64,000 nucleotides of DNA from Corallococcus exiguus (GTDB lineage Bacteria; Myxococcota; Myxococcia; Myxococcales; Myxococcaceae), in assembly GCF_013155175.1 (NCBI RefSeq), contig NZ_JABJTS010000010.1; one strand, given 5' to 3'. The translations under genes and the position numbers were made by a program. Position 1 is the first letter of the stretch; every line of letters starts with the position of its first letter. Shown here piece by piece: positions 9,617 through 64,000 of the stretch. The notes beneath the pieces are model-generated. The model was not told the DNA's origin. It saw only the letters and a program-made list of their open reading frames with translations, and ran no database searches.

Positions 9617-9655
9617 GGCCCGGTGCTTCGAATCACAGACGGATGACGCGCAAAC

Positions 9656-9689: not shown

Positions 9690-9720
9690 GAATCACTTCC
9701 AGGGGCTTTCGCCGCCGGGA

Positions 9721-45165: not shown

Positions 45166-45169
45166 GGCT

Positions 45170-45210
45170 CCTCGGGAGGCGGGAGAGAAGGCGCGGCGGC
45201 GCCTCCCGAG
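45170..45210. terminator. Strong hairpin downstream of the minus-strand lysis genes, followed by an AT-rich tract; candidate prophage boundary
   Basis: CCTCGGGAGGCG…(17 nt)…CGCCTCCCGAGG perfect 12-bp inverted repeat. Adjacent 'agttaacttttaaagtccataacgacggactctaaagag' is unusually AT-rich for this genome. Confidence 0.45.
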
Positions 45211-45264
45211 GAGTTTGAGCGCAGTTAACTTTTAAAGTCCATAACGACGGACTCTAAAGAGCCA

Positions 45265-45561
45265 TCATCGCACCCGGGCGAGGGCGAAGCCTGCCCCCGC
45301 GCCGAGCACCACCGCCAGCACTACAGCCAGAACAGGGACGGGGCGCGGCTGCTGGCGGAGCACCTCGTTCTCCGCCTGGAGGCGGCGCAGCTCGCGAGCC
45401 GTGAGGATGCAGCGCTCCGTGGACAGCCAGCAGCCCTCAGCCACCACCACCGTGCGCCCGTCCTGAAGCGTCACGGTGGCGCGGGCCACATCCAGCACCT
45501 CCCCTTCGGCACGCGCCCCGCCTGCTATCAGCAGGGCCAGCGCTAGCACCAGGCCCCTCAC
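45265..45561 (-). CDS. Small membrane/secreted protein, candidate spanin or lysis accessory protein
   Basis: 98 aa. N-terminal signal/TM (LVLALALLIAGGARA). Central coiled-coil-like 'ARELRRLQAENEVLRQQ'. C-terminal TM (VLAVVLAVVLGAGAGFAL). 4-nt overlap with upstream gene, directly 3' of the endolysin. Confidence 0.4.
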   Translation of the reverse strand: MRGLVLALALLIAGGARAEGEVLDVARATVTLQDGRTVVVAEGCWLSTERCILTARELRRLQAENEVLRQQPRPVPVLAVVLAVVLGAGAGFALARVR

Positions 45562-46067
45562 CGCTTGTCGCCCGGCTGGAGTGCATCGAGCGCGGCCACC
45601 GCCGCCGCCTTACCGGCAATCTCCCCGGCCGCCACCTCCCCCGCCTCGCGCGCCGCGTCCGCCACCGAGTCACCGAAGAGGAGCGTCTTCACCACCGTGA
45701 AGCCGCCCGCCGCCCCGAGGCCGATGGTGAGCGCCTTCAGCAGCAGGGCCACGGTGAAGGACTCGCCCGCCAGCAGCGCGTTGGACACCGCACCCGCGAC
45801 GGACAGCAGCAGCGCCAGCACCGCGCCCGCCCGCGCCGTGCGCAAGAGCGGCCACCACGCGCCCACGAAGCGGCGCAGCACGTAGACGAGAGCGATGACG
45901 GCCAGGGACGCGACGAGGGCCCAGTTGCGGGCCGTCACCGCGTCGAGGATGAGGCGCGCGAAGGCCTCCATGTTGCCCGGGTCGGGCGTGCCGCTCGCCT
46001 GCGCAAAGGCGACGGAGGGGAAGACGAGGCAAAGGAAGAGGACGGCGAGACGTCGCAACATGGGCAT
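45558..46067 (-). CDS. Multi-TM membrane protein, candidate holin-like lysis protein
   Basis: 169 aa from ATG (MPMLRRLAVLFLCLVF…). 3-4 predicted TM helices. Lies between the endolysin and the small membrane protein. The tabulated 342-aa ORF is an upstream extension overlapping the endolysin. Confidence 0.4.
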   Translation of the reverse strand: MPMLRRLAVLFLCLVFPSVAFAQASGTPDPGNMEAFARLILDAVTARNWALVASLAVIALVYVLRRFVGAWWPLLRTARAGAVLALLLSVAGAVSNALLAGESFTVALLLKALTIGLGAAGGFTVVKTLLFGDSVADAAREAGEVAAGEIAGKAAAVAALDALQPGDKR

Positions 46068-46108
46068 GCCTTTCGTGGGTGAGGCGCGGCGAAGTGCCGC
46101 GCGGGAAG

Positions 46109-46675
46109 TCAGAAGCCGAGCCGCGCCAGGGAGGCCGCGAGCGCCGGGTGCATGGCGCGCCACTCCGGCATCGAGCGCAGCGTGTCGAGGAAGCGCCAGA
46201 CGGCGGCGAGCCGCTGCGCGTCCGTGCTGCCCTTTGGCTCCGAGTGGAAGAGGCCGCGCACGGGCTCCAATTGGCTGCCGCTCACGAGGCTCGGCCACTG
46301 GCAGTGCGGCGCGTCCCCGAAGGAGCCACCCCAGGCGAGGCCCGCGCTGCGCGTCTCCTCGCCAAGAATGGCGTAGGCAGGACCATCCCAGCGCGGCTGA
46401 AGTCCCGGGCGGTTCACGTCCGCATCGCGGCAGAAGTCGTTCGCCAGCCCGTAGTTGTGCGCGGAGAGTCCTTCCGGCGCCGCGCGCCCACCCTCTCCCT
46501 TCAGGTAGCGCAGGTGCAGCACGCGCTGCTCGGCGAAGGTGGAGTAGCCGCGCGTGGCGACGTAGTCCGCGCCTCGCGCTCGGCAACGGGCGATGACTTC
46601 CCCCATCACCGCCTGGAAGGGCGGATAGAGGGGCTTCAAGTCGAGGCGGGAGAAGAGTTCAGGGTTGGGAATCAT
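46109..46675 (-). CDS. Phage endolysin, peptidase M15 (L-alanyl-D-glutamate / D-Ala-D-Ala carboxypeptidase-like)
   Basis: 'SAHNYGLANDF' (H-x6-D zinc ligands of the M15/VanY fold) and a later His. 188 aa. Position at the end of the tail module. Confidence 0.65.
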   Translation of the reverse strand: MIPNPELFSRLDLKPLYPPFQAVMGEVIARCRARGADYVATRGYSTFAEQRVLHLRYLKGEGGRAAPEGLSAHNYGLANDFCRDADVNRPGLQPRWDGPAYAILGEETRSAGLAWGGSFGDAPHCQWPSLVSGSQLEPVRGLFHSEPKGSTDAQRLAAVWRFLDTLRSMPEWRAMHPALAASLARLGF

Positions 46676-46715
46676 CCCCCACTGAATGGGGGCGGGTTTC
46701 GACGTGTGGCGTGAG

Positions 46716-49118
46716 TCACCCTTCCGCGCGGAATCGCACTCCGTCGAGGCTCACCCAGGCCGCCCCCGTGGGCAGGCTAAAAACTTGGAGGCCACCGTCC
46801 ACGTTGAGCTGCCCCATGGCAAAGCCGTGGCTCGTCGGCAGTGACAGGATGCGGTTGGAGCTGGCCCGGTAGCCCACTGGGAAGCGGTACGCGTTCACGT
46901 AGCCCACCGCCCCTGGGCGGATGAGGCCGCGTGCGGACACCTCGTTGTCGCTGTTCTTGTAGAAGCCCAGGGGCCAGTTGGTCGCATCCCACGCCACCCA
47001 GCCATTCTCCAGGTCGCTAATCTGCCCCGTGCGGATGGCCGCCCACGGCTCGACGAGGCCGCCGATGCGCTCCAGGCGCACCGAATCGACGAACACCCAC
47101 GGCAAGCCTTGCGTTGCATGGGCCAGCAGACGCACCTGGACGTAGCGCGTCCCGGTGGGCGCATTGTGGAAGCCTGTCGTCCGCTCCCAGCCACTCGTCG
47201 GCAGCGTTTTCGTCGTGCTCACCGTACCCAACACGTTGAAGGCGCCGCCGTACCAGACGAGTTGGACAGAGAAGGCCGCCCCTACCTGTGACGCCCTCGC
47301 GAGGGCATCCACGCTGTACCTGTCGCCCGGCCGGGCAATCATCGCCTGCGAGTCAAGCCGCGTCCCGCTCGCCATGAGGCGGACGGCACGAGCCCCCGTG
47401 TACGCGTCCGCCGTCACCTGGGCATGCGCACCCCAGAGGCCCACGCCCATAGTCCAGGCGTCTGGCGGCAGCTCCTCGAAGGAGTGCGCCTCGAAGTCGG
47501 GGTTGGGTGGCGATTCCCCGAAGGCTACGGCGGGCTGCAGCGTGGCGGGCGTCACATAGCCCGTCGTGACGGACACCTCGGCGGATGGCGCGCCCAGGTT
47601 GCCAGAGGCATCGCGGCCCACGACCCGGCAGTAATACGTCGCGCCGGGGCGCAGTTCGGACAACGGGAAGCGCGTCGCCGAGGCCCGCCCCTGGAAGGTG
47701 GCCTCGGAAGGCTGGAAGCCCGGCGTTCGCGACGCATGCACCTCGTACTCGGCCCAGGCTGGGCCGGTAGTCGCAGGGGTCCACGTCACCACGCACCCGT
47801 TGACGGTCGGCACCGCCCTCACCTCCTGCGGCGCGGCCGGGCCCGTGAAGGCCGCGCTGGGAGCGATGCCCGGTCGACTGTCACGCTCCAGCCACTCACG
47901 CAGCGAGGTAGAAGGCTGGCCGCGCAGCACCAGTTTCATGCGCGCCGTGCCGTCCGTGGCGCACTGGTGCTCCAGCTCCTGCACCGCAAGCCGCTGCGCC
48001 GTGTCCAACCGCACGCCATCCGGAAGCACGAGCACCAGGTCCGCCAGCTCCAGGCCCGGGTGCGGATCCACCGTCATGGTGACGGCGAGGGGAGAGACGG
48101 AGAGATCCGCGATGGCCGCGTCCGCGAGCCGTTGCGCTTCGGGCTCCGTGTCGATGTTGCTGGAGGACTCCTCCGCCACCTGCATCCAGCGGCGGCCCAC
48201 CTGCGCGCGAGCCGTGGGGTTGCTGGCCGCCACCGTCTTTCGCTTCGGTGTTCCCGAGGCGTCCAAATCGTATTTGTCGCTGTAGACGACTTCGACGTCC
48301 GTGCGGATGTCCGCCAACTGCCGCGTCATCCCATCGAGGTTGCCGTACTCGTCCGGACCGTAGCTCCAGTCCTCCTCCGTCTGGAGTCGGTTGGGCGCGG
48401 CGAGCGTCAGTGCGTAGGCGCTTGCAGCAGGCTGCCAGCGCATGCGGCAGTCCCAGCCAATCCGCTGCGCCAGGGTGCGTGCCGCGTCCAGTACCGGCTC
48501 CACCTGCTGCAAGTACCGGCCGCGCTGGGACATGGGGTCCACGGGCGTAAAGAGCGCGAAGGAGGCGAGGCCGTTGTCGTCCAGTAGCGCCTGGATGATG
48601 GACTGCACGGCCACGCCCACCGTGTCGTTGCCGTATTCGCGCTCCACCTCGATGAAGGTGTCCTGCAGCAGCCCGCCCAAGTCCCGGCCCACGACGCGCA
48701 GCTCATCGGGCCCTGCGTCCACCTCGTCGATGCGGCCCCGGAAGACCTCGAAGTAGTCCGCCTCTTTCGGCGCGGTGGCGAGCGGCGCGAGGCCCAGCTC
48801 CACGCGGAAGTAGGCGCCCTCCACCAGCAGCGGCGCGAAAGTGCCCGCGTTGGACGTGTTGGCGAGGGACTGCACCACCAGGGGCGAAAGGGAGAGACGT
48901 GCTCCAGCGGCGCCGCTGCGCACCAGCGACACCTCCGCTTCGGCCACGGGCGCGTCCAGCTTGTCGTTGACTCGCACGCCCAGCACCCAGTCGAAGCCCA
49001 GAAGGACATGCAGGCCGCGCCACTCCCCTGCCGCGTCGCGTACCCAGACGCGCGGGTGGGTGGAGTAGCCGGAAGGGCTGCCCAGCAGGGCCGCCTGGAA
49101 GGAAGAGAGGGGCCTCAT
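46716..49118 (-). CDS. Phage tail fibre / host-specificity protein (GTA gp15-like N-terminal region, fibronectin-III domain, C-terminal lectin/concanavalin-like domain)
   Basis: 800 aa. Central 'VPTVNGCVVTWTPATTGPAWAEYEVHASRTPGFQP…YYCRVVGRDASGN' FN3 signature. Last large gene of the tail module, 4 nt from the distal-tail gene. Confidence 0.65.
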   Translation of the reverse strand: MRPLSSFQAALLGSPSGYSTHPRVWVRDAAGEWRGLHVLLGFDWVLGVRVNDKLDAPVAEAEVSLVRSGAAGARLSLSPLVVQSLANTSNAGTFAPLLVEGAYFRVELGLAPLATAPKEADYFEVFRGRIDEVDAGPDELRVVGRDLGGLLQDTFIEVEREYGNDTVGVAVQSIIQALLDDNGLASFALFTPVDPMSQRGRYLQQVEPVLDAARTLAQRIGWDCRMRWQPAASAYALTLAAPNRLQTEEDWSYGPDEYGNLDGMTRQLADIRTDVEVVYSDKYDLDASGTPKRKTVAASNPTARAQVGRRWMQVAEESSSNIDTEPEAQRLADAAIADLSVSPLAVTMTVDPHPGLELADLVLVLPDGVRLDTAQRLAVQELEHQCATDGTARMKLVLRGQPSTSLREWLERDSRPGIAPSAAFTGPAAPQEVRAVPTVNGCVVTWTPATTGPAWAEYEVHASRTPGFQPSEATFQGRASATRFPLSELRPGATYYCRVVGRDASGNLGAPSAEVSVTTGYVTPATLQPAVAFGESPPNPDFEAHSFEELPPDAWTMGVGLWGAHAQVTADAYTGARAVRLMASGTRLDSQAMIARPGDRYSVDALARASQVGAAFSVQLVWYGGAFNVLGTVSTTKTLPTSGWERTTGFHNAPTGTRYVQVRLLAHATQGLPWVFVDSVRLERIGGLVEPWAAIRTGQISDLENGWVAWDATNWPLGFYKNSDNEVSARGLIRPGAVGYVNAYRFPVGYRASSNRILSLPTSHGFAMGQLNVDGGLQVFSLPTGAAWVSLDGVRFRAEG

Positions 49119-49121
49119 GCG

Positions 49122-49949
49122 TCAGCGCTCCTGCAACTCGAAGTCGAACTCCTGCCCGAGGACGAGCACGCCGCCCTCCCACCACTGCACCGCGCGTCCT
49201 GTTCCCACCCGGCCCAGCACGGGAAGCGGCTCGTAAAGGGCAGCGCCCGAGGCCCGGTGGTACGGGTACGGCGCGCCGAAGGACTCGCCGGCAGCGAACC
49301 AGGGGGCCACCCACGACGCGGGCGCCACCCACGGCAGCACCACCAGCTCGTCCACCAGCAACTCGCCCGCTGCCGCTGCGTTGCTGAGCGTCACCGCGCC
49401 CAAGGGAAGCTGGCCCGTGCCATCCACGGCGAGGAAGCCGTCCGCGTGGGGGCTGGCACCCGGCACGCCGTTGACGCTGAGGCCCACGCCCGCGCGGTGG
49501 ACGTGGTGGCGCCACCTGTCCTTTGTCCCCTGGCGCTTCCACCAGTACGCCACCGTCCACTTCGCCCCGAGGCCCGTGGAGAAGGTGACCCTCGCTCCCG
49601 CCTCTATGAGCATGCACCCGCCGAAGCGCCCCGTGGCTTCCACCGCCCACACGTTGCCCACCATGCCGCTCGGCGAGAGGAAGGCCTGGCTACGCAGCCC
49701 GTCCTCGAAGTTCCACACCTGGCCCTCGCCCTTGAGGAGCCCCCGGTACGCGCGGGCCTCTTCCTGCGTCAGCGGGCCCGTGTTGCCCCCCAGGGTGAAG
49801 ACTTCACGCCGCTCGCTGCTGCGCAGCCAGCCGGAGAAGGCGCGGCGGTGCTCGCCCAGCAGCGTCGGTGTGTACGTGAGGCCTCGCTCCGCTGAAACGG
49901 GCAAGGGGATTCCAGAAAGAGCCAGAGCAGCCGGCATGGGATTCCTCAA
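49122..49949 (-). CDS. Phage distal tail protein (GTA gp12-like)
   Basis: 275 aa, between tape measure and fibre. 4-nt overlap with tape-measure gene. Confidence 0.5.
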   Translation of the reverse strand: MRNPMPAALALSGIPLPVSAERGLTYTPTLLGEHRRAFSGWLRSSERREVFTLGGNTGPLTQEEARAYRGLLKGEGQVWNFEDGLRSQAFLSPSGMVGNVWAVEATGRFGGCMLIEAGARVTFSTGLGAKWTVAYWWKRQGTKDRWRHHVHRAGVGLSVNGVPGASPHADGFLAVDGTGQLPLGAVTLSNAAAAGELLVDELVVLPWVAPASWVAPWFAAGESFGAPYPYHRASGAALYEPLPVLGRVGTGRAVQWWEGGVLVLGQEFDFELQER

Positions 49950-52624
49950 GAGTCGGAGAAGCGCGCCGTGAGGCGCACGCGGCTGCCAGCAACGCGGATG
50001 CTCGCGCGCTGCTGGCGCAGCGACTCGTCCCGCCGCGTGGCTTCCATGGCGGCGTCGATGTCGTAGCCGGTGATGTTATAGGTGACGGGCGCGGCCATGG
50101 CAGAGACGTTGCCCGTCTCCGGCGCACGCACCTGACCTCCTCCGCTGAAGCCAGGAGGCAAGTAGCTGCCGAGCCATCCCGGCACCGCAGGCGTCGCGGG
50201 CACCTGCCCCGAGAGGAGCTGCTGAATGGCGGGCGGGAACATGCCGAGGAGCCATCCCGGCACCGGCCCGTTGGGCGAGGACGGGCCGTCCTCCTCCAGC
50301 TCCCCGGCGTCAGGCGCCTCGGGCGTGGGCTTTGGTTTGGGCGGCACCGTGGGGCCGTCCTGCGTGTCCTCGGACTCGAAGCGGCGCAGCGCCACCTTCC
50401 ACGCGGCCGGCACGTTGGTGAGAGCCGCCGTGGCGCGGGCCACCGCTTCCGTGTGCTCCTCCACCTGCGCGGTTTCCTCGGCACGTGCCTTCGCCGAGTC
50501 CCACGTCGTGTCCTCCAGCACCTGGAGGGAGTCGTCCATGCTGTCGGTGTCCACCTTCAGCTTGTTGAGCGAGCGCGCGAACTTCTTCAGCCCGTCAAAG
50601 CCCGTCCAGTCGATGAGGCTGGAGATGGCACGGATGACGGTTTGCACCGCGCCGATGACGGCATTCCAGACTTCGCTGATGGCCTTCGCGATGGTGAGGA
50701 CGACGCTGCCAACGAACTTCAGCGCCGTGAAAAGGGCCTTCATGATGGGCCCGCCCAGGATGCTGAGCGGCTGCTGAATCAGCAGGAAGGTGCGGCCCAG
50801 CACCTCGAAGAGGGGCGCCAGGCCCTTCAGGATGTCGCCCAGCACCACCAGCGGCGGCACCAGCGGTTCAATCGCCTCCCCCAGCATCTCGAAGACGGGC
50901 GTGAGGGCAGAGAGGACGCCATCCACCACCATCGTCACGGCGTTGAGCAGGGGCTGGAGCGGCTCCAGCAGCGTGCCCAGCGAGTCGGCCACCTTCTGGA
51001 TGAGCGTGTTGACGGACTCGATGACGCCCTTGAAGCCCTCGGACTGCATGAGCAGTTCGCCCACCACGGCGATGATGGCGCCGTAGACACCACCCGCCTC
51101 CATGCCCTGGACGCCCGCGTTGATGAGGTCGCCCAGCTGGCCCAGGCCGCCGATGAAGCGGTCCACCAGCGACTCCCTCGCGGCGTCCATGGCGGCTTCC
51201 GCTTCAGCGGCGAGGTTCTCCGCCTCCAGGCGCATCTCGTGGAAGGCAGCGGCGCCAGCGGCCTCCTCCGCGCGGATGCTGGCCAGGTACTCCTTGCGCG
51301 ACTCCTCGTTGGCCTGGGCCTGGAGCTTCGCCATGGCGGCCTGCTCCGCCGCCTCCTGCTTCTGGGCGGCCTCCAGGGCGGCCTTGTCCGTGGGCTTGCG
51401 GATGCGCGCCTTGCCCTGTGCCCCGCCCCCACCCGCTAGCTTCGCCAGGAGGGCCTGGATCTGCGACGTGACGCCCTCCAGGTTGAGGGCACGGGCGAGG
51501 TCCGCGCCGAGGCGCTTCGCGCCCACCGCGCTGGTACGCAGACCGTAGGCGACGCTCTCCTCCAGCTCGCGTCCCGCGCCGGCCACGGCGTCACCCACCG
51601 CCACCGCTGTCTGCTGCGCACCGTCCCAAAGCACCTGGGCGCCCTGCCCCAGCGTCTCCAGCAACTCCCGGCCCGTGACGGTGGACACCTGCCGGAAGGT
51701 GGCTGCCAGCTCCGGGAAGCCCGCCTGTCGTGCCACGGGCTCAAGGAGACGGGAGACGCCACGCACCAGGGCCGCGACGCGGTCCAGGACGGACAGGGCC
51801 GCCCCCTTCACGAAGTCGCCCAGCGCCAGGAAGGCGTGGGAGAAGCCGTCCGCGATGCGGCCTGCCCACTTGGCCAGCTGGTCGCCGATGTCCCGGAAGA
51901 AGTCCGCGAGGCCCGTGCTGCTGTCCTCCCAGGCGGCGTAGACGCTGCCCGCCAACAGCACCAGGGCCGCTACGGCGGCGGCCACCGCAGCGAGCGGCAC
52001 CAGCAGGCTGCCGGTGGACAGGGCCAGGCGCCCCAGGCTGCCGGTGACGGATGGCGTACTCGCCACCATGCCGCCCATGGAGGCCGTCACCTTGTCCATG
52101 GAGGCCGCCAGGGAGGCCAGGGCCACGGACTTGTTGAGCAGGCGCAGCACCTTCACCAGCCCGCCAGCGCCAATGGCCACGGCCTCCACCACGCCCGCCA
52201 CTTTCCCCAGCGCCCCAGCAGCGAGGCCCGCCCCAGCGACCCACACCAGCACGTCCGAGGCGGCGGCCTTCACCTCGGGAGACAGGGACTGGAAGCTCGC
52301 GACCACGCGCTCGACGCCGTCCGTGACGTGCTGCACCACCGGCAGGAAGGCGTCGCCCACGTCCGCCGCCAGCGTGTAGAGGAGTGCTGTCATCCGCTCC
52401 GTTTCGCGTTCCATGGCTGCGTTGGACTTGGACGCCGCCGCAACGGCACCGGCAATCCCCGCCGCCACCGCCGCGCCAATCTCACCCAGGCCCTTGGATT
52501 TCTCCTTCACCTGCTTGGCGGCCTTCTCGACGGCATCCACCACCTTGCCGAGGTTGGACAGCGCCTCGCCCACAGAGGCCGTCACCGCCACATACAGGTC
52601 GCCTACGCGCAGGCCTCCGGCCAT
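49946..52624 (-). CDS. Phage tail tape-measure protein
   Basis: 892 aa. Ala/Gly/Leu-rich alpha-helical with internal TM-like segments and periodic aromatic residues. Canonical position after the tail chaperones. Confidence 0.8.
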   Translation of the reverse strand: MAGGLRVGDLYVAVTASVGEALSNLGKVVDAVEKAAKQVKEKSKGLGEIGAAVAAGIAGAVAAASKSNAAMERETERMTALLYTLAADVGDAFLPVVQHVTDGVERVVASFQSLSPEVKAAASDVLVWVAGAGLAAGALGKVAGVVEAVAIGAGGLVKVLRLLNKSVALASLAASMDKVTASMGGMVASTPSVTGSLGRLALSTGSLLVPLAAVAAAVAALVLLAGSVYAAWEDSSTGLADFFRDIGDQLAKWAGRIADGFSHAFLALGDFVKGAALSVLDRVAALVRGVSRLLEPVARQAGFPELAATFRQVSTVTGRELLETLGQGAQVLWDGAQQTAVAVGDAVAGAGRELEESVAYGLRTSAVGAKRLGADLARALNLEGVTSQIQALLAKLAGGGGAQGKARIRKPTDKAALEAAQKQEAAEQAAMAKLQAQANEESRKEYLASIRAEEAAGAAAFHEMRLEAENLAAEAEAAMDAARESLVDRFIGGLGQLGDLINAGVQGMEAGGVYGAIIAVVGELLMQSEGFKGVIESVNTLIQKVADSLGTLLEPLQPLLNAVTMVVDGVLSALTPVFEMLGEAIEPLVPPLVVLGDILKGLAPLFEVLGRTFLLIQQPLSILGGPIMKALFTALKFVGSVVLTIAKAISEVWNAVIGAVQTVIRAISSLIDWTGFDGLKKFARSLNKLKVDTDSMDDSLQVLEDTTWDSAKARAEETAQVEEHTEAVARATAALTNVPAAWKVALRRFESEDTQDGPTVPPKPKPTPEAPDAGELEEDGPSSPNGPVPGWLLGMFPPAIQQLLSGQVPATPAVPGWLGSYLPPGFSGGGQVRAPETGNVSAMAAPVTYNITGYDIDAAMEATRRDESLRQQRASIRVAGSRVRLTARFSDS

Positions 52625-52627
52625 GCC

Positions 52628-52813
52628 TCACCCCTTTGGACGCTTCCTGAAAACCGTTGTCGTCGTCATCGGGCCGGTATGAGAGGCGGGGCCCGGAGCG
52701 CGCATTCCGCGCACCTCCTCGGCCTCCAGGGCGCAGTGGGCCAGGAGGTGGACGACGTCCTCCCATGCCCAGCTACGCACTTCCTCGGGCGACTGGCCCG
52801 TCAGCTTCACCAC
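52628..52813 (-). CDS. Short ORF downstream of the tail assembly chaperone; possible -1 frameshift product (G-T-type)
   Basis: 61 aa ORF in a different frame, 15 nt after the chaperone stop, in the position where G/GT chaperone frameshifting occurs in siphoviruses. Confidence 0.3.
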   Translation of the reverse strand: MVKLTGQSPEEVRSWAWEDVVHLLAHCALEAEEVRGMRAPGPASHTGPMTTTTVFRKRPKG

Positions 52814-52827
52814 CGCGTGCAGCGCCC

Positions 52828-53211
52828 TCAGCTCGGGGTGGTGCCGGAGTTTCCCTTCGCTTCCTCCAGCGTCGGTCCAGCGAAGGCCCGGGCCAGGTCG
52901 TCCTGAATCTCCTCCAGCCAGGGCTCGCGCTTCACCTGGCCGACCTCCGACTCGTCGAAGACGCGGATGGCGGTGTCCGGGTGGTAGAGGCAGAGGACGG
53001 CGATGCGGGCGATCATCGCCATCCCCGCGAACTCATCCACGGGCTTCCGGTCCGGCCCCAGTTCCTTGGCGGCCTTCGCGGCGGCGAGCAACTCAAGCTT
53101 CTCGCCCAGGGGCGGTTGGCAGATGTCGTAGTCGGCGCCGTCCAGCGCGACGCGCTTGTGCAGCTTGCGGCGGGTGCCGAGGGGCTTTCGGAGCGTGGTG
53201 GGTGCGGTCAT
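52828..53211 (-). CDS. Phage tail assembly chaperone
   Basis: 127 aa acidic protein immediately upstream of the tape-measure gene. Confidence 0.5.
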   Translation of the reverse strand: MTAPTTLRKPLGTRRKLHKRVALDGADYDICQPPLGEKLELLAAAKAAKELGPDRKPVDEFAGMAMIARIAVLCLYHPDTAIRVFDESEVGQVKREPWLEEIQDDLARAFAGPTLEEAKGNSGTTPS

Positions 53212-53247
53212 GGTGAGGCCTCGGGTGTGAAGTGGGAAAGCAGGCGG

Positions 53248-53673: not shown

Positions 53674-53687
53674 GGTGGTGGTTCCAG

Positions 53688-54089: not shown

Positions 54090-54167
54090 CTACTACTTCT
54101 ATGGGGGTGCTCTCCGCAACTGGCGCATCAGTGAGCCCCAAGCAACAAGGCAGCTTTAACTTCCCGT

Positions 54168-54173
54168 TATAAT
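54168..54173 (+). promoter_or_regulatory. Candidate -10 element (TATAAT) for the KAP NTPase gene
   Basis: 'cccgttataatggggg' about 45 nt upstream of ATG 54217 in an AT-rich 115-bp spacer. No convincing -35. Confidence 0.3.
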
Positions 54174-54216
54174 GGGGGTGTACGAGCGGACACTGAACCT
54201 ACGAGACTGACCACAA

Positions 54217-56418: not shown

Positions 56419-56446
56419 GGGCCATGTAAATCCAATCCACAAATGC

Positions 56447-56884
56447 TTAAATATTAACCATGACGAAGAATCCAATTATCACATTAAACACCCAACAATG
56501 CCGGTCTGCGCCATCTGTCCCCAAATAGGCCGGTGCGCTTCCCTCCGCGCGTACAACAGAGCAAGAGGCGAGTGCCTCCAGGTGGAGGGCACTAAAGACA
56601 GCCTGAGCGAGTCGCTGCCCGCCCTCGAAGTCCTCCCGTGCTGAACGCACTCGCACCTGACAGCCTGGCGCAATGTACGCCGCGCGGCGCAGCCCCATGT
56701 ACGCCTGTGGTCCCGCGCCGCCTGTCGCCAACAGGGCCACGGCCCGGTCCGGCACTTCGCCGTCGGCCTCAGGCATCGGAGCCGTGAAAAGGTTTGCACT
56801 TGTAGCTGGAGCGCGCATCAACCCTATGCCTGCTGCCTCCAATACATCCGCGAGTTCCAAAGCGATGTCACGCATCAGAACCAC
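56447..56884 (-). CDS. Phage head-tail joining / tail-completion protein (hypothetical)
   Basis: 145 aa. 10-nt overlap with next neck gene. The 3' end runs into the low-GC insertion (C-terminal …FFVMVNI). Confidence 0.45.
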   Translation of the reverse strand: MVLMRDIALELADVLEAAGIGLMRAPATSANLFTAPMPEADGEVPDRAVALLATGGAGPQAYMGLRRAAYIAPGCQVRVRSAREDFEGGQRLAQAVFSALHLEALASCSVVRAEGSAPAYLGTDGADRHCWVFNVIIGFFVMVNI

Positions 56885-57198
56885 ACCTTACGGAAACGCA
56901 CCGCACCCGATCCGTCCACTGACTCGTCCACGGCTACGGGGCGCCGCGCACGGTTGAAGTCCGCGACGTCCTCACCCGGCAACCAGACACGGTGCTGTAG
57001 GGTGACTGGCGCGTCCGTGTAGACAACATGCGCAGCTAGGTGCTCGTTACCATTGGCGTCGCGGATGAGACGCCGGAATGGCTGCACGCGCGCCCGCGTC
57101 GTCAATTGGGGCCCGAGCGTCGGCTTGCCGTAGGCGTCTCGTCCCGTCAGAACGGCATAGGTGATCAACTGACGGAAGGTGTCCGAAGGTGAGGCCAT
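56875..57198 (-). CDS. Phage head-closure / head-tail adaptor protein
   Basis: 107 aa. Position and size consistent with HK97 gp9/gp10-like neck proteins. Confidence 0.45.
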   Translation of the reverse strand: MASPSDTFRQLITYAVLTGRDAYGKPTLGPQLTTRARVQPFRRLIRDANGNEHLAAHVVYTDAPVTLQHRVWLPGEDVADFNRARRPVAVDESVDGSGAVRFRKVWF

Positions 57199-57857
57199 CA
57201 GATCACCCGGTGAATGACGTAGGGCGCGAGCAACGCCTGCGCGACACCAGGGATAGGACTCTTGCCCTCAGCCTTCGCGGCAAAGTAGCTCACCGACCAA
57301 TCCCCGATGGACTCGCTGGCGACCATCGCGTCCACACCGCGCGAGCGGTACAGCTGCACTGCCGTGAGAACGGTGGCCTCCTGCACGTCCTCCGGCAACG
57401 TCACCACGCGCGACGCATCCAGGGCCCGCTGCCCCGGCGTCACGAAGCCTCCGTCGTAGACGACGCGGATGCCCTCCTCGCTGCCCTGGAAGCTGTCTAC
57501 CACCTCCACCACCAGCCCTCCCGAGCGCGCCGTCTCCCGCCAAGCTCCGCGCCTGCGGTACAGCATGCCGGCGTCCGCCAGCTTCCCAAGGCTCTCGTAC
57601 TCCTCAGCCGGAACGAAGGCACCGCCCTCCCAGACGCCCACCACCAGGACAACGGGCGGGCGCTCCAGCAGCAGCAATGGGCGCCCGTAGCCAGCCGGGT
57701 ATTCCACGAGCCCCTGGCCGTGCTCGAAGACCCGGCCGCAGTAGCCAGCAACGGCCCGGCTCGCCGCCGTGACGAGCGACTCCAGACGCGGCGTCACCGC
57801 TACGCCCAGGTCATCCGCCACGGTGGCAGCCAGGCACAGGTCAGCAGGATGCGCCAT
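57198..57857 (-). CDS. Phage head-tail connector-like protein
   Basis: 219 aa. 1-nt overlap with downstream gene. Sits between capsid-decoration-like ORF and the adaptor. Confidence 0.45.
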   Translation of the reverse strand: MAHPADLCLAATVADDLGVAVTPRLESLVTAASRAVAGYCGRVFEHGQGLVEYPAGYGRPLLLLERPPVVLVVGVWEGGAFVPAEEYESLGKLADAGMLYRRRGAWRETARSGGLVVEVVDSFQGSEEGIRVVYDGGFVTPGQRALDASRVVTLPEDVQEATVLTAVQLYRSRGVDAMVASESIGDWSVSYFAAKAEGKSPIPGVAQALLAPYVIHRVI

Positions 57858-57861
57858 GGCG

Positions 57862-58296
57862 TCACACCGGCAGCGTCATGGCGCCGCCGAAGACGATGAA
57901 GGCGCACGCCTGGAGGCTGGGCGAAGTCCCGCCCGTCAGCGTCGTGGCCTCCGCAACGCGGATGAACCGCTTCGCCGCGCCGAGGTCCACGTCCTTCTCC
58001 GCGAAGGTGTTCGCCGCAGCCAGTTGCACGGAGGCCGAACCCGGTCCGGCCGGCACGAAGTCCGTCCAGGCGTCATCCGCTCCATTGTCGCTGGAGTGCT
58101 GGAGTTTCACCTCGTAGCCCTGCGCGGTGGGGCTGCCCGTTACCGCTCCCGTGGCCGCAACGAGGACGCAGCTCTCCCCCAGGACGAGCCGATCATAGCC
58201 CTGCCCCTGGCGAGTTCCGGCAGGCGTCGCGGCGGGCGGCGTGCCCAGGCGAGCGGCGATGAAGGTGCCAATCTGACTGATGTGCGGTGCGCTCAT
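57862..58296 (-). CDS. Phage hypothetical protein (head-associated)
   Basis: 144 aa Ala/Gly/Thr-rich ORF 28 nt downstream of the major capsid gene. Confidence 0.4.
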   Translation of the reverse strand: MSAPHISQIGTFIAARLGTPPAATPAGTRQGQGYDRLVLGESCVLVAATGAVTGSPTAQGYEVKLQHSSDNGADDAWTDFVPAGPGSASVQLAAANTFAEKDVDLGAAKRFIRVAEATTLTGGTSPSLQACAFIVFGGAMTLPV

Positions 58297-58323
58297 AGTG
58301 TCCTTTCGTGGGGCGTCGCCCCG

Positions 58324-59547
58324 TCAGTTGCTGCCCCAGCTCAGGTCCTTCACCACGACGCCGGACTGCCGGTGGCGCATGGCCAAGTCATGCTTGGTGA
58401 TGGCACGCAGCACCGTCTGGTCCGTGGAGATGCCGGACACCAGATGCCCGCCGCGCGTGAAGGCTCCGTTGGGGAAGACTTCGATTTCCAGCGCCATGGA
58501 CTCGCCGATGAGAACCTCGGCCATGTCTACGAGATACAGCTCCGAGCAGTTCTTGCCCGAGCCCAGCGTCTCCGGAATCTGGTTGGTGACGAAGAAGGGC
58601 ACGTTGCGCAGCGTGCCGCGCTCCACCATCTCCCGCTCCAGGGCGTTGGTGCCCTCTCCGCCAGGACCCGGAGCATCGAGAATGGCCGTCTCCGCGTTGG
58701 GGGACATCAGCCACACCGGCTGCACCATGGGCACGTTGGCCTTCTTCAGCTTCTTCTTCGCCTTGTTCAGCTCCTTCTTCATCTCGCCCAACGTGGGCGC
58801 GCCCGCCGTGGCCACCGTCTCCGCGTAGACGTGGGCCGCGTCCACCTGGTTGCGGATGCCGCGCGGCTCCAGCTGCGTGCCGCTGCCTCGCAGGAAGGCC
58901 ATGTCCTCCCGCAGAGCCATGACGTTCAGCAGGTCGTTGCGGATGAACTCCTCGGCGTTGATGGACGCGTTGCGGATGAGGTCGTTGGGCACTGCCGTCA
59001 GCGCCGTGAGCTTCTTCTCGGACAGGGACACCGTGTCCGTGCCCGGCTCCGACTCCTGGATGGTGCTCGTCTCGCCGCCGTAGAAGGCCGTGCCCGTGCT
59101 GGACTGCCGGTCGAAGGTGAGCGAGGCCCCGATGGGGATGACGCGGGCGCCGGCCTGTCGCACCACGGCCTTGTGGCGCAGCAGCTCGATGAACTCGGAG
59201 GCGAACTGGGGATGCACCAGGGAGCCCATGCCCGAGTAGTTGCCCTGGGAGAGGGCCTTGCTCACCACCTCGTCGCCCCAGCCCTTCAGCACGTCCACCA
59301 CGTTGCGCCCTTCCATGCGCGCGACGGCCTTCGCCTTCACGAAGCGGATGAGGTTGAGGCCCGTGCCCTCCGTCATGTGCTTGCCGGTAATGGGCGAGCG
59401 GCGCGGTTCCTCGGGCGCGGTCTCGGCCGCCTTGGAGCCCAGCAGGGCCGCATAGCTGTCGCGGTGCCCCTTGGACTGCTCCACCAGTTGCGCGGCCACC
59501 AGCGGGCCCAGCGACTTCGCCATCTCCTGCATCTGCTCGGGGGTCAT
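58324..59547 (-). CDS. Phage major capsid protein, HK97 family
   Basis: 407 aa. N-terminal delta-domain-like helical region then HK97-fold core (…RNVPFFVTNQIPETLG…ELYLVDMAEVLIGESMALEIEVFPN…). 4-nt overlap with protease gene. Confidence 0.9.
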   Translation of the reverse strand: MTPEQMQEMAKSLGPLVAAQLVEQSKGHRDSYAALLGSKAAETAPEEPRRSPITGKHMTEGTGLNLIRFVKAKAVARMEGRNVVDVLKGWGDEVVSKALSQGNYSGMGSLVHPQFASEFIELLRHKAVVRQAGARVIPIGASLTFDRQSSTGTAFYGGETSTIQESEPGTDTVSLSEKKLTALTAVPNDLIRNASINAEEFIRNDLLNVMALREDMAFLRGSGTQLEPRGIRNQVDAAHVYAETVATAGAPTLGEMKKELNKAKKKLKKANVPMVQPVWLMSPNAETAILDAPGPGGEGTNALEREMVERGTLRNVPFFVTNQIPETLGSGKNCSELYLVDMAEVLIGESMALEIEVFPNGAFTRGGHLVSGISTDQTVLRAITKHDLAMRHRQSGVVVKDLSWGSN

Positions 59548-60230
59548 GCCTTCTCCTGGAGGTGCTGAAACAGGGCCCGCGCCGTGTGAGCGGCAAGGGC
59601 GTGGGTGTCGGACTCGGAAAGGGAGGGAGGTGCGGCGGGCGGCGTGGCCTTGCGCTTCTTCCGCGACGTGCGGCCCAGCGCCTTCACCACCGCGTCCGCG
59701 ATGTCGCGAATGAGGGCGGCGCGCTCGTCGGAGTGCTTCTTCAGCCGCACCGCGCGCTGGTTGCCGGGAATCGTGACGACGGAGATTTCGAGAAGCTCCT
59801 GCTCGTCGCAGTCGTAACCGCCGCGCTCATTCTCGTGGTAGCGCAGCATGCGGTAGCGCACGCTCACCGCGTTAAGGATGCCCTTCTCCACCTTGGACTC
59901 GACGCGTCGGGCAAACTCATCGTCTTGGTCGAACTCGATGTCCACCAAGAGTGCGTCGCCCTGCACGTAGGCGCGGCCCTTGCCGATGGGCAGGACGTCC
60001 GTGCGGCCCGCGCCGAACAGCCCGCCAGAGCTATCGTCGTGCATGTAGAGGACGACGGGATTGGCGGCGTATGCATCGAGCCGCCAGCCCTGGATGGACA
60101 GCCGGTCATTGTAGCGGTCGAAGTCGGCGTCGTTCGCACGGAAGGTGAAGACCTTTGGCTGGCCCTCAACAGGTGACGGCGCATCCTGCTGAGCGACAAG
60201 GCGACGAGTTCTTGAAAGAGGTGCAGGCAT
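59544..60230 (-). CDS. HK97-family prohead protease (peptidase S78)
   Basis: '…RLSIQGWRLDAYAANPVVLYMHD…LLEISVVTIPGN' conserved prohead-protease core with Ser/His catalytic region. 228 aa. Confidence 0.85.
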   Translation of the reverse strand: MPAPLSRTRRLVAQQDAPSPVEGQPKVFTFRANDADFDRYNDRLSIQGWRLDAYAANPVVLYMHDDSSGGLFGAGRTDVLPIGKGRAYVQGDALLVDIEFDQDDEFARRVESKVEKGILNAVSVRYRMLRYHENERGGYDCDEQELLEISVVTIPGNQRAVRLKKHSDERAALIRDIADAVVKALGRTSRKKRKATPPAAPPSLSESDTHALAAHTARALFQHLQEKA

Positions 60231-60465
60231 TCACCTTTTCAATGGGGGCAGTATTAGAACTCCCCAAGAGCAAGCCCAATCCCCCCAGACAACGAGCCCG
60301 CTGGAAGCAGCCCTTCGCCAATACCACTGGTATATTGGCGCCCCAACACAACACAGGGTCAATCCAACCCCACCGCAAACATCACTTACGCAGATTATGT
60401 ATCCATGCTTCTCGCCATTACTAGGCCTGATTGACTTTCGTACGTCGCTCTTATTTCATCGAGCA

Positions 60466-61134
60466 ATGACCAGACCGACCGCTCTGATCCTCACTGCGTC
60501 ACTGCTAACCAGCGCATGCTTCGGGCATATTCCTCCTGAAGGCACTCAAGTGACGATGCCTCCCACAGAGACAACTCCACCGTCACGCGCCAAACAAGAG
60601 GTTGCTGCTCCCCCCGCGACAGGCAATAAGGCAGTCGACGAGGCACAGGCTTTTGTTTCGGACGCCTTCAACCATTGCGATAATGTCACCCTCAACACTG
60701 CATACCAGCAACTACTGATCACGAAGATTGCAACAAGAAGGAAAAACCTTGGACTTCTTGCAACAACAATAGTTGGCGTCGCCGGCAGCATTGTTACCGC
60801 AGCCCTCCTTGGATCCAAGGCAGCCAGCGACGGGAATTCAGAGAAGGCCACCATTGTCGGGGCAAGCTCAGCAGGCGCGACAGCAATCACAGGCGTAGTC
60901 TCTATCTTTATCGTTGGCAGCGGAGCAGACGATCGCGTCAAGCAGATGTCAGACAACAAAAACCGAATCGACCAGGAGGTCGACGACCTCTCGAACTCGT
61001 GCAAAGATATCAACGCCAACAACGCAGCCCAGTGCACACAAAAAGCTAAACGCGTTAAGAATCGCTGCGGAATCGCAGAGACTCAGCTACCCTACGAAGT
61101 CGAAAACCAGCCCTCATTCCTACCGACCAACTAG
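60466..61134 (+). CDS. Low-GC lipoprotein with internal TM helix, inserted between portal and protease genes (moron; candidate superinfection-exclusion protein)
   Basis: ATG at 60466 (MTRPTALILTASLLTSAC = signal + lipobox). Central TM 'LLATTIVGVAGSIVTAALLG' and second hydrophobic segment. AT-rich codons. Plus strand, opposite to phage genes. Tabulated ORF starts 23 codons earlier. Confidence 0.5.
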   Translation: MTRPTALILTASLLTSACFGHIPPEGTQVTMPPTETTPPSRAKQEVAAPPATGNKAVDEAQAFVSDAFNHCDNVTLNTAYQQLLITKIATRRKNLGLLATTIVGVAGSIVTAALLGSKAASDGNSEKATIVGASSAGATAITGVVSIFIVGSGADDRVKQMSDNKNRIDQEVDDLSNSCKDINANNAAQCTQKAKRVKNRCGIAETQLPYEVENQPSFLPTN

Positions 61135-61176
61135 CCATTAGATGCCATCCGATTTTTAGTGTGGGCTGGCTTGGGA

Positions 61177-62460
61177 TTATGGAGCTACTTGTCCCGGCAT
61201 GGGCAACGGATAGCCCTGCCGGTTAGAGTCCGGTTCGAATCCAGCCAATGCTCGCCACTCGTCATAGCTAAAGGCCTCCGGCATGGCGCTCATGACGCGT
61301 AACTGGTGCTCGCGGTCCGCCGGCACAGGGCTGTCGTAGTCAAGAATGGCATCCGCGCCGCCGAACAGAGGCATCAGCCGCATCTGGTACTCGGTACGGA
61401 GGAACTCCATGCGCGGGAGCGTCGCCTGCTCGGCGAGGTTCTCCCGCGCCGCGAAGGCAGTCGCCTTGTTCGAGCTGGAGATGTCGCCCACGATTTCGGG
61501 CGGGACTCGAAACGTCATCCTCACGAAGTCCATGAGGAACTTCCGCAATTCCACCAACTGCATGTCGCGGAAGCTGGTGTCCAGGCGCGCGAACGTGACC
61601 CGGCCGCTGGTGAGCAGCAGCTTGCCCGCCTTGTCCGGCCCCTGATGCTCGCGGGCCAGCGACTCCTTGAAGGCCTTCGCCCCTGCGCTGTTCGCATCCG
61701 TCAGCCCCTCGATGGATGCGATGGCTGGCGGAAGCATGTTGTTCCAGAAGCTCGCCCGGAGGAACCGCGCCACGAACTCGTCCGTGTCCAGTTCGTCCCC
61801 AAGCGCGAAGGCGGGACCGACTCCTCGCCCAAGCGGATCCTCCGGGTCCAGGTTTCGCAGATGGAGCACATCCGCCGCTGGAATCTCCCGCATCACGCCG
61901 CCCACGGCGACCGTGAAGGTCCGCAGTTCACGCGGGACGTCCATCGCAGGCAGCCGAGTGACGAGGTTCGGAGGCACCGGCCAGAATCCCACCGGGAAGC
62001 CCGCCACACGTTCCAGCACCAAGAATGCCTCGCCGACCAGGTCCAAGTACACCTGCACCAGCTTTGTGACTGAGCGGCCCGTCAGGTAGTCGTTCGGGTC
62101 CGCGAGCATCCGAAGAATTGGATGGTCCGGCACCTCCTGGACTTCGCCCGCGTCCAGCATGGACTTCAACCGCATGGCGCGGACCTCGCGCGTCGCGCTG
62201 CGAAGGGCGTAGTCCTTCACCGGCTGGCCCTCCCGCGAGACGCGCCGGTACACACGCCAGTTCACCCCGGCCACAGAGTCCGCGACCACGTCCACAATCG
62301 CCCGGAGCCAGGGCATTTCGCGGTACGCCGCCAGTAGTTGCGAGGTGCCTCGGCGCGGCGGCGCCTGCTGCCAGCGCGCCAGCTCCAGCCCCGTTCCCTG
62401 TCGCGGAGGACGCGCCACCGCCGCCTTCATCCGGTCCCACAATCCCAAGACACGCCTCAC
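61177..62460 (-). CDS. Phage portal protein, HK97 family
   Basis: 427 aa with conserved portal core (…YLDLVGEAFLVLERV…TFTVAVGG…). 4-nt overlap with TerL. Confidence 0.9.
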   Translation of the reverse strand: MRRVLGLWDRMKAAVARPPRQGTGLELARWQQAPPRRGTSQLLAAYREMPWLRAIVDVVADSVAGVNWRVYRRVSREGQPVKDYALRSATREVRAMRLKSMLDAGEVQEVPDHPILRMLADPNDYLTGRSVTKLVQVYLDLVGEAFLVLERVAGFPVGFWPVPPNLVTRLPAMDVPRELRTFTVAVGGVMREIPAADVLHLRNLDPEDPLGRGVGPAFALGDELDTDEFVARFLRASFWNNMLPPAIASIEGLTDANSAGAKAFKESLAREHQGPDKAGKLLLTSGRVTFARLDTSFRDMQLVELRKFLMDFVRMTFRVPPEIVGDISSSNKATAFAARENLAEQATLPRMEFLRTEYQMRLMPLFGGADAILDYDSPVPADREHQLRVMSAMPEAFSYDEWRALAGFEPDSNRQGYPLPMPGQVAP

Positions 62461-63866
62461 AGGCAGAAGAAAGAGTCAGCGAAGACCAGCTCATGTGTGC
62501 CCCACAAAAGGGCATCGACGCGGTCATCGCGGCGGCCGTTGATGCCGCTGAATTTGGCGAGCTGCGCCTCCAGCTTCGGGAAGCTGCCCACCAGCTCGAT
62601 GCGCCCGGTCTCCGCCAGGGCGCTCACCGGCTCGGCGCGCTTCGACTTCGCCTCCCGAGCACGCACCGGCTTCACGTTGACGTGGACGCCCATCTCCGAG
62701 GCCACCGTCTGGATGGTCGTCTCCACCATCTCCCCGCCTGAGTTCACCTCCGCAACCAGGGCGTCACAGCCGAAGGCCAGGTACTCTCGGATTGCGGCTG
62801 CGGCCCACTCACGCGGAGAGCCCCGGAAGCTTGCGTCCTTGAGCACCGACACGCGCTTGAGCGGCGCGCCATCCGTCCCGACAAGCGGACTGCTTCTCAC
62901 GCCCTGGACCACAATGCCCGTCTCGTCCGAGCCCGTCTCGCTGGTGGGCGCTGGGTCCACGGACACGATGCGCCGGTCCAGGCCGCGCGCGTATTCGTGG
63001 GCATCCGCTTCCACCCTGCCCCACTTCGCCGAGCCAAAGATGGCGCCTGGCACGTCCATCAGCAGCCGGCCCAGGACCTCCTGCTGGCCCCAGCGCGTGT
63101 GCATGAGGGCGCGCATGGTGGCGACGGCGCTGGGCGCCAGGTTGGCGCGGTTGGCCAGCGACGAGCCCGTCCGCAGCACCACTCCCGGCCGCAGCGTCTT
63201 CGCTTCCGCATCCGCGAAGAGCAGCTCCTCCAGCTTCCGCAACGGCCTGGGTGTCCCGGTAAGCAGCAACTGAGGCGGGTGCGCGACGGTGCCGATGCGC
63301 AGCACCATGGGGAGCTGGTCCAAGGCCGCCATCTCATGCTTCCACGAGGCGGGCTCGTCGCCCCAAGCCCAGCCGCAGTTTGGGCCGCGCAGCCGGTCTG
63401 GCTTATCCGCCGAGTAGCAGATGGCATAGACACCGTTGGGCCACGTCACCCGGCGCTTGCTGGGCTCGTAGACGGGCATGAACCAGGGCGGCGACAAGGC
63501 CAGGATGCCGCTGGTGCCACGGATCATCGTGTCGCGCACGTCAGCCGCAGTGGGTCCGATGAGGGCACCGATGGACTTCGCTTCCCGGGCCTTCTGAATC
63601 ACCCACCGGGCCCCGCTCCACGTCTTCCCGAAGCCCCTGCCAGCCATGATGAAGCAGGTGGAGAACGACGCCGGGGGCACCTGTTCTCGCCGCGCCCAGA
63701 AGTCCAGGTCGTGGACGAGCGTTTCCACCTCGGGATGGGTCATCCGCCCGAAGAGGCGCGCGAGGCCCTGGCGGGTGCCGGCCTGGCGCACCATGAAGGC
63801 TGCTGGGGACTCGTCTGGGGCGAGTTGCTCCAGCATCCCCGCGAAGGGCAGGCGCTCACGGCGCAT
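62457..63866 (-). CDS. Phage terminase large subunit
   Basis: Walker A 'MAGRGFGKTWSGA'. ATPase then RNaseH-like nuclease half (…VDPAPTSETGSDETGIVVQG…). 469 aa. Confidence 0.9.
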   Translation of the reverse strand: MRRERLPFAGMLEQLAPDESPAAFMVRQAGTRQGLARLFGRMTHPEVETLVHDLDFWARREQVPPASFSTCFIMAGRGFGKTWSGARWVIQKAREAKSIGALIGPTAADVRDTMIRGTSGILALSPPWFMPVYEPSKRRVTWPNGVYAICYSADKPDRLRGPNCGWAWGDEPASWKHEMAALDQLPMVLRIGTVAHPPQLLLTGTPRPLRKLEELLFADAEAKTLRPGVVLRTGSSLANRANLAPSAVATMRALMHTRWGQQEVLGRLLMDVPGAIFGSAKWGRVEADAHEYARGLDRRIVSVDPAPTSETGSDETGIVVQGVRSSPLVGTDGAPLKRVSVLKDASFRGSPREWAAAAIREYLAFGCDALVAEVNSGGEMVETTIQTVASEMGVHVNVKPVRAREAKSKRAEPVSALAETGRIELVGSFPKLEAQLAKFSGINGRRDDRVDALLWGTHELVFADSFFCL

Positions 63867-64000
63867 CGTCGCCCCCGCTGCTGCTGGCCCCCGCCGTCGC
63901 TTCGGGAGCGTCCGGCAGCAGGCGGCCCAGCCGGTCCATCAGCAACTCGCGCAGCGCGCGCTCGTCGGCGGCCTTGTCCTCGGGCGCCACCTCCGAGACG
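63863..64000 (-). CDS. Partial ORF, probably terminase small subunit or upstream packaging gene (truncated by window end)
   Basis: Open minus-strand frame continuing from 63863 to the window edge with 4-nt overlap onto TerL. Too short to classify. Confidence 0.3.

Follow-up and report, generated by a model that had tools for sequence, protein, structure and literature searches.

We analyzed a stretch of 64,000 nucleotides (the window) from Corallococcus exiguus (contig NZ_JABJTS010000010.1, assembly GCF_013155175.1), in which a cluster of phage late genes lies beside a cassette of kinase, regulator and DUF2381 genes and a selenocysteine tRNA gene (tRNA-SeC). The overall GC content of the window is ~70%, and the genomes closest to it are from Corallococcus and Myxococcus. 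Matches to Pfam and PHROGs delimit a phage late region from 63866 to 45265, contiguous on the minus strand apart from two plus-strand inserts, and uphold both the full packaging, head, neck, tail and lysis set and the HK97-like prophage proposed in an initial annotation of this DNA. Its count of nineteen co-oriented, overlapping genes holds as regards the overlaps, but not in number and orientation: the region comprises 18 minus-strand genes and the 3' end of a terminase small subunit gene (63856-64000), and two further genes run on the plus strand. We read the cluster as a temperate HK97-type siphovirus prophage of an ordinary kind, which belongs to a phage family common in Corallococcus and Myxococcus. 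Its genes and the two sites that interrupt them are given below (aa, amino acids; TerS and TerL, terminase small and large subunits; L numbers denote related loci).

63856-64000, minus strand: TerS, 3' end, cut by the window edge (translation; aligns to the TerS of L001, which matches phrog_4102 at 6e-14)
62457-63866, minus strand: TerL (Pfam Terminase_6N and Terminase_6C)
61177-62460, minus strand: portal protein (Pfam Phage_portal, 3.6e-41)
60231-61176, no strand: cargo slot 1, ~53% GC, between portal and protease
60397-61134, plus strand: 245-aa protein in slot 1, putative lipoprotein (from its sequence; signal ...LLTSAC if translation starts at an internal Met at 60466)
59544-60230, minus strand: prohead serine protease, S78 (Pfam 1.7e-6)
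58324-59547, minus strand: HK97-type major capsid protein (Pfam Phage_capsid, 4.2e-33)
57862-58296, minus strand: conserved phage protein, 144 aa, no assigned role (phrog_5707, 4e-11)
57198-57857, minus strand: head-tail adaptor (phrog_442, 1.9e-23)
56875-57198, minus strand: head-tail connector, head closure (phrog_3881, 7.8e-7)
56447-56884, minus strand: tail terminator (Pfam Phage_tail_terminator_6, 4e-9)
54090-56446, no strand: cargo slot 2, ~50% GC, between tail terminator and Neck1
54217-56418, plus strand: PifA-like KAP-family P-loop NTPase in slot 2, 733 aa, antisense to the late operon (Pfam KAP_NTPase 1.8e-47)
53688-54089, minus strand: tail completion/Neck1 protein (phrog_5, 3.6e-5)
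53248-53673, minus strand: tail tube protein (Pfam Phage_tail_2, 1.3e-5)
52628-53211, minus strand: tail assembly chaperone G/GT pair (frame analysis)
49946-52624, minus strand: tape measure protein, 892 aa (ten PHROG tape-measure families, best 1.9e-17)
49122-49949, minus strand: candidate distal tail protein, 275 aa, assigned from position (synteny)
46716-49118, minus strand: tail protein with fn3 domain, 800 aa, central fibre/host recognition (Pfam fn3; phrog_1887, phrog_31)
46109-46675, minus strand: Peptidase_M15_4 endolysin (Pfam 1.6e-5; PHROG endolysin 2e-10)
45558-46061, minus strand: multi-pass membrane protein, 167 aa, putative holin (hydrophobic segments; a 167-aa gene also in L045, L048 and L063)
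45265-45561, minus strand: 98-aa protein with a C-terminal transmembrane segment, positioned past holin and endolysin

The genes for terminase, portal, prohead protease and HK97-fold capsid stand in the expected order (Pfam), and a long non-contractile tail module is present with tube, G/GT frameshift chaperone and tape measure; no tail sheath match was obtained among the late-operon proteins. A canonical -1 slippery heptamer (G_GGA_AAC, 52849-52855) is positioned in the correct phase within the chaperone pair, with a predicted GT fusion of 194 aa. All 18 genes are full length, their lengths being those found in relatives; overlaps of 1-4 nt between neighbours are common and have been kept, and the GC content at third codon positions (GC3) is high. 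Neither Pfam nor PHROGs returned a family match for the 275-aa candidate distal tail protein, the putative holin has no PHROG match, and the 98-aa membrane protein, which may be a spanin-like lysis accessory, matched no family in Pfam, PHROGs or PADLOC. Scans of viral contigs with right-end proteins yielded nothing for the endolysin and two distant loci only for the 275-aa tail protein. The best TerL match of the genome scan (97% aa identity) occurs in two copies in C. coralloides KYC2213; in the phage collection, the best matches are ordinary siphoviruses at no more than 40% identity, with no myxophage among the matches listed. At two related loci the prohead protease gene is split, in one case (L024:14032-16729) by a high-GC transposable element with IS66-like open reading frames (ORFs) and in the other (L005:15015-16724) by a high-GC element with a 541-aa transposase-like ORF; these two phage copies are presumably defective.

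The two plus-strand genes interrupt the operon within islands of 50-53% GC, compared with ~69% GC around them. Both sites were compared by DNA alignment of the window with 27 related loci, 27 of which span slot 1 and 24 slot 2. The alignment always breaks at both slots and then picks up on the far side: slot 1 is filled in 27/27 loci (0.9-3.1 kb, 47-55% GC) with 24 distinct sequences, slot 2 in 24/24 loci (0.4-2.7 kb, 48-59% GC) with 21. The 3' end of the tail terminator gene falls within the variable boundary of slot 2, where alignments to related loci have their breakpoints between 56464 and 56860. The relatives contribute 68 slot ORFs, 56 of them antisense to the structural genes; together with the two from the window (70 in all) they form 50 clusters, and one representative per cluster was scanned for defence functions with PADLOC and Pfam. 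Matches comprise PifA (the window KAP protein), an AriA+AriB (PARIS) pair within one slot, a Pycsar cyclase with a TIR effector (PycC/PycTIR), SduA_C (Shedu), GmrSD_N, Mrr_cat, Schlafen/AlbA_2, AAA_21 with DUF4435, FRG/PDC-S15 and a SAVED-HNH effector, and many cargo genes have no match in PADLOC or Pfam. We conclude that the two intergenic sites behave as defence hotspots, with fixed flanks and swappable cargo.

Regarding the cargo of the window itself, the KAP NTPase matches the PADLOC PifA profile at 3.3e-78 over nearly its full length (profile positions 3-657 of 720) and shares 38% identity with a Xanthomonas plasmid protein and ~25% with Escherichia/Klebsiella plasmid P-loop NTPases. The 245-aa protein of slot 1 has no Pfam or PADLOC match; its sequence makes a lipoprotein translated from the internal Met (60466) probable, and the protein could serve in superinfection exclusion. 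Early regions of relatives show alignment breaks at four more positions (4300-4769, 8650-9966, 13180-14370 and 17053-17140 in L055, and the same places in L001, L002, L053 and L054), at least some of which are filled by low-GC genes, among them genes for an Mrr-like nuclease, a C-type lectin and a HEPN-like protein. An extra insert of ~740 bp between TerL and portal (L029:11406-12143) is possibly an additional cargo slot.

Upstream of the TerL start codon the window extends for only 134 bp and thus ends before the early region, which explains why no integrase is seen in it. Close relatives of the phage (80-92% nucleotide identity) carry in the next 15-16 kb upstream of TerL the genes for TerS, a sigma-70-like protein, a VapE-type primase, a PD-(D/E)XK nuclease, a helicase-like protein, a family-A DNA polymerase (PolA) and a RuvC-like resolvase. 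An excisionase-like HTH_17 protein and a tyrosine integrase were seen upstream in one relative, the C. praedator prophage L055, whose late genes are ~86-87% identical to those of the window. The missing integrase, repressor and replication genes, initially taken as a trait of the element, are hence no such trait as regards replication and integration, and the early region of the relatives implies a temperate phage of ~39-43 kb.

On its lysis-gene side, the late region is followed by the cassette and the tRNA gene.

45166-45264, minus strand: cassette upstream region, inverted repeat and hairpin, conserved before phage-less cassettes
43996-45165, minus strand: kinase-fold protein, 389 aa (Pkinase in homologues; motif scan)
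43632-43991, plus strand: Xre-family helix-turn-helix (HTH) regulator, 119 aa (HTH families in homologues; PADLOC matches)
43263-43604, plus strand: Xre-family HTH regulator, 113 aa (HTH_3/HTH_31 in homologues; PADLOC capH/HTH matches)
41221-43068, minus strand: Hanks-type Ser/Thr kinase, 615 aa (GQGGFG, HRD, DFG and SPE motifs; Pkinase in homologues)
40280-41194, minus strand: DUF2381 protein with N-terminal signal peptide, cassette gene 5 (Pfam DUF2381 in the L045 and L063 homologues; hydrophobic N-terminus)
40137-40279, no strand: spacer between tRNA and DUF2381 gene, identical in the same-site strain L063
40038-40136, plus strand: tRNA-SeC, probable attachment site (ARAGORN), the only tRNA in the window

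The 615-aa kinase has a single transmembrane segment (~residues 365-391) and an extracytoplasmic C-terminal domain. The 389-aa protein is probably a pseudokinase, because its sequence is devoid of a G-loop and reads NFG where DFG is expected, a call that agrees with the "PKc-like" label of its M. xanthus homologues. Matches of the cassette kinases to PADLOC PD-T4-6 were discarded as defence evidence, being generic kinase-domain matches. In front of the cassette lies a hairpin with a perfect stem of 14 bp (45168-45181/45200-45213, loop of 18 nt), stronger than the 12-bp stem originally described, and the 121-nt hairpin region folds with z = -4.3 relative to shuffled sequences. The AT-rich tract beside it, also correctly recognized at the outset, is itself an inverted repeat (~45226-45262, core GGACTTTAAAAGT). 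The GAGGAG Shine-Dalgarno motif for the 389-aa gene falls within one hairpin arm; a scan of the hairpin region for consensus promoters and terminators found nothing.

The same tract (GGACTTTAAAAGT inverted repeat plus hairpin) precedes the cassette at phage-less loci and does not occur at the integrase ends of relatives. We therefore regard 45166-45264 as a regulatory region of the cassette and rule it out as an attachment (att) site, in disagreement with the initial annotation, which had placed the right end of the element or its attachment site at 45170-45260. The conserved ends of the cassette comprise ~100 bp upstream and ~35 bp downstream, the latter being the DUF2381-proximal part of the spacer that is common to phage-less cassettes. 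In C. caeni (L073), a phage-less cassette is flanked by two DUF2019 genes (9492-9869 and 14534-14893), which could mark a duplication or an insertion target.

The initial annotation had noted the selenocysteine tRNA, confirmed here by ARAGORN, and dismissed it as an integration site, probably wrongly. Three genomes, C. caeni and C. llansteffanensis among them, diverge from the window directly past the CCA end of the tRNA. The tRNA-SeC of C. caeni is accompanied by neither phage nor cassette, and in C. llansteffanensis the tRNA is occupied by another element with an integrase of its own. The C. llansteffanensis element (L066:11034-12389) opens with its integrase right past the tRNA and encodes T5orf172 and a DUF3854/DUF5906 primase, and at the C. 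caeni site (L064:11013-15300) lies a strain-specific PhyH/RHS island. Thus, tRNA-SeC is an integration hotspot in Corallococcus. In L055, the tyrosine integrase gene (phrog_1, 2e-12) ends at 19083, and ~90 bp past it, at 19176-19243, lies a copy of the 3' ~68 nt of tRNA-SeC, from anticodon loop to CCA, which corresponds to ~40069-40136 of the window. The Rfam tRNA-Sec model scores L055:19137-19239 at 32.3 bits (E = 8e-5), under its gathering score, and ARAGORN finds no complete tRNA in this integrase-side copy. A partial copy beside the integrase means that the intact tRNA should stand at the far end of the element, where the window shows it, past DUF2381.

Within 40137-64000 no repeat of tRNA-SeC was found. 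A search for the att repeat in viral contigs gave zero matches with the 3' 27-mer of tRNA-SeC and two unrelated ones with an 18-mer, and in an attempt at empty-site reconstruction the outer flank of L055 matched no other locus. The spacer contains two tandem repeats of 10-11 nt (40188-40207 and 40220-40241), which may be integrase arm sites.

Phage and cassette occur together in other genomes and at other sites: at tRNA-SeC in a second strain (L063), next to a non-ribosomal peptide synthetase gene (L045, where the alignment to the window stops at 40277), at another site in KYC2213 (L048, with an extra 214-aa gene between lysis genes and cassette) and in M. stipitatus (L068, the kinase being only 63% identical). 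C. coralloides KYC2213 carries two copies of the element, and its presence, absence and site vary among related genomes; where a fixed, conserved locus in sister genomes would have spoken against a mobile element, we thus found multiple copies at differing chromosomal sites. As the cassette travels with the phage family at several sites, the 3' end of tRNA-SeC (40136) is the likelier junction, and insertion of the phage at this tRNA is probable. Beyond DUF2381, L068 (14687-17038) carries a toxin/immunity pair, Tox-REase-5 and Imm52, and L048 (16404-19075) Imm52, DUF2379 and an IS66 TnpB. Both point to cargo for kin discrimination at this end of the prophage, reminiscent of that known from myxobacterial prophages (PMC10047993). 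One 361-kb contig holding the prophage (L004, BNCN01000010.1; TerL 92% identical, locus GC 65%) is titled "Comamonas sp. KCTC 72670", a label that looks wrong unless the assembly is contaminated.

We consider it probable that the locus represents a temperate phage in tRNA-SeC, with two defence slots in its late operon and the cassette carried as cargo at its end. According to this model, 40137-64000 would make up the late half of a siphovirus with HK97-fold capsid that has integrated into the tRNA-SeC 3' end, an intact tRNA remaining at the cargo/lysis end; integrase and partial tRNA copy would be expected ~15-16 kb past the TerL start, giving a whole element of ~39-43 kb. The late genes would be read on the minus strand in the order TerS, TerL, portal, protease, capsid, neck, tail and lysis, with the tail chaperone made via a -1 frameshift. 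The portal/protease and terminator/Neck1 sites would act as exchangeable slots that hold in each phage another low-GC gene or gene pair, mostly antisense. The PifA-like NTPase and the putative lipoprotein may be expressed from the prophage, and slot products might protect the lysogen from other phages by abortive infection or exclusion. The cassette (pseudokinase, two Xre regulators, transmembrane kinase and secreted DUF2381 protein) would form a self-contained unit between lysis genes and att, for which the hairpin and AT-rich inverted repeat (45168-45262) would provide operator and 5' untranslated region. Regulation by the Xre proteins, inducibility and the location of the unseen end are likewise expectations of this model.

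Several observations weigh against this model. Phage-less cassettes occupy three further chromosomal sites, one common to four C. exiguus assemblies, a second in C. exiguus and one in C. caeni. The "empty" tRNA-SeC site of C. caeni carries strain-specific genes of its own and is not a clean empty site, because its flanking PhyH gene is not conserved in other Corallococcus. T-arm-like sequences past DUF2381 in L045 and L048 are weak and not significant in Rfam, and an integrase end away from the intact tRNA, as required here, is the less common polarity. Integrase, second att copy and intactness are extrapolated from relatives, as the far end lies outside the window. Regarding the slots, a promoter/terminator scan around both gave no signal above chance beside the cargo genes, and the defence role of these genes is predicted from family membership. 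The main residual doubt concerns whether cassette and phage are one element or neighbours; a second one concerns the intactness of the unseen early half.

The first of these doubts corresponds to an arrangement of tandem or nested islands, in which the cassette is a separate tRNA-SeC island or a paralogous host locus and the phage ends at ~45265, inserted beside the cassette or targeting it. The phage-less cassettes, the cassette's own conserved ends and the 214-aa gene that separates it from the lysis genes in KYC2213 are in line with such an arrangement. It nevertheless appears unlikely, since there is no repeat of tRNA-SeC or any other kind at 45166-45264, the cassette motif is not found at integrase ends, the link between phage and cassette holds across genera and sites, and the partial tRNA-SeC copy of L055 requires an intact tRNA at the cassette-bearing end. 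We judge it equally unlikely that the locus is a defective, decaying prophage remnant, which has lost its early region and is kept for its cargo: the far end is unseen, transposase insertions (IS66 and other) in the protease gene have presumably inactivated some relatives, and phage-less cassettes could be end products of decay, but in the window 18/18 late genes match the full length of their relatives, GC3 and gene overlaps are maintained and the frameshift site is intact. Least of all do we credit a domesticated locus akin to gene transfer agents (GTAs), with particle genes ending at 45170-45260, the kinases being host genes and lysogeny functions absent, as 45265-64000 indeed shows no integrase, repressor or replication gene, the module boundary at 45265 is sharp and the cassette is also found phage-less, but primase, nuclease and PolA genes adjoin TerS on its upstream side in relatives, L055 additionally has an integrase, the element varies in copy number and location (two copies in one genome), the tract 45166-45264 precedes phage-less cassettes and is never at integrase ends, and the best TerL matches are ordinary siphoviruses.

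Compared with the temperate phage favoured here, which is real but was in part misread in its boundaries and nature by the initial annotation, slot architecture and the link between phage and cassette are the parts of most note, the prophage itself being ordinary. Fixed slots provide an easy source of candidate myxobacterial defence genes, many of them without counterpart in PADLOC or Pfam, and constitute a second example of defence hotspots in a phage late operon, this one from outside the P2 lineage and with a bearing on the generality of such an architecture. Until now, kinase/Xre/DUF2381 clusters were regarded as host signalling loci that arose by duplication and are tied to yellow/tan phase variation. 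In M. xanthus, kinase/Xre/kinase clusters such as MXAN_4371-4373 are duplicated loci with altered expression in tan-phase variants, and a PKc-like kinase with two Xre genes (MXAN_1892-1895) lies within the Mx alpha range MXAN_1800-1901 (PMC3986340; 10.1101/2024.12.30.630742); a role in regulating phase variation has been proposed for kinase/DUF2381 clusters (10.64898/2026.08.28.747804). We found a related cassette beside a serine recombinase at 2.15 Mb of an M. xanthus chromosome, in the region reported for Mx alpha (PMC6070905). The link between prophage and cassette suggests a mobile-element origin for some M. xanthus loci associated with phase variation. That kinase/Xre/DUF2381 clusters across the Myxococcaceae owe their spread to this prophage family and persisted where prophages decayed is a tentative idea that we would not yet favour; were it right, the cassettes and at least six antisense low-GC slots might, just as tentatively, turn the phage into a modular vehicle for genes of defence and social behaviour.

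In comparison with known systems, the element shares with HK97-type temperate siphoviruses of lambdoid late-operon layout the gene order from TerS through fibre to lysis, as well as, probably, a tyrosine integrase (here known from L055) and a tRNA attachment site. It differs from them in a TerL at most 40% identical to that of any deposited phage, no myxophage being among the matches listed, and in two cargo slots within the morphogenesis operon and a large att-proximal signalling cassette. Gene transfer agents of the RcGTA type have a similarly compact head-tail cluster, and like them the element shows no lysogeny gene inside the window, whereas the linked replication genes of relatives, the L055 integrase, varying copy number and location, and contiguous lysis genes set the present element apart. 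Mx alpha units of M. xanthus span ~80 kb and form tail-less particles of 35 nm (PMC6070905). Like these, the element is a multi-copy, prophage-like myxobacterial element with accessory cargo, including the toxin/immunity genes (L068) and Imm52 (L048) after DUF2381; unlike these, it measures ~40 kb and has a full tail module, the comparison being one of descriptions. Since size and tail module differ, we argue that the phage family is at least not a classical ~80-kb, tail-less Mx alpha unit.

PifA of the F plasmid mediates exclusion of T7. The window protein is likewise a KAP-type P-loop NTPase with a near full-length PADLOC PifA match, but is prophage-borne, shows only ~25% identity to the Escherichia/Klebsiella plasmid NTPases and has no PifC-like partner in view. 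In P2-like phages and P4-like satellites, fixed sites between conserved genes hold diverse, exchanged anti-phage systems (Rousset et al., 10.1101/2021.01.21.427644). The slots described here occur in a phage lineage and a host phylum unrelated to these; at least six are seen in relatives, two of them between head/neck genes, and their cargo, in part of predicted defence function, is of ~50% GC in a 70% GC genome and mostly antisense. Common to both systems are fixed slots with diverse cargo, with PARIS among the recurring known systems.

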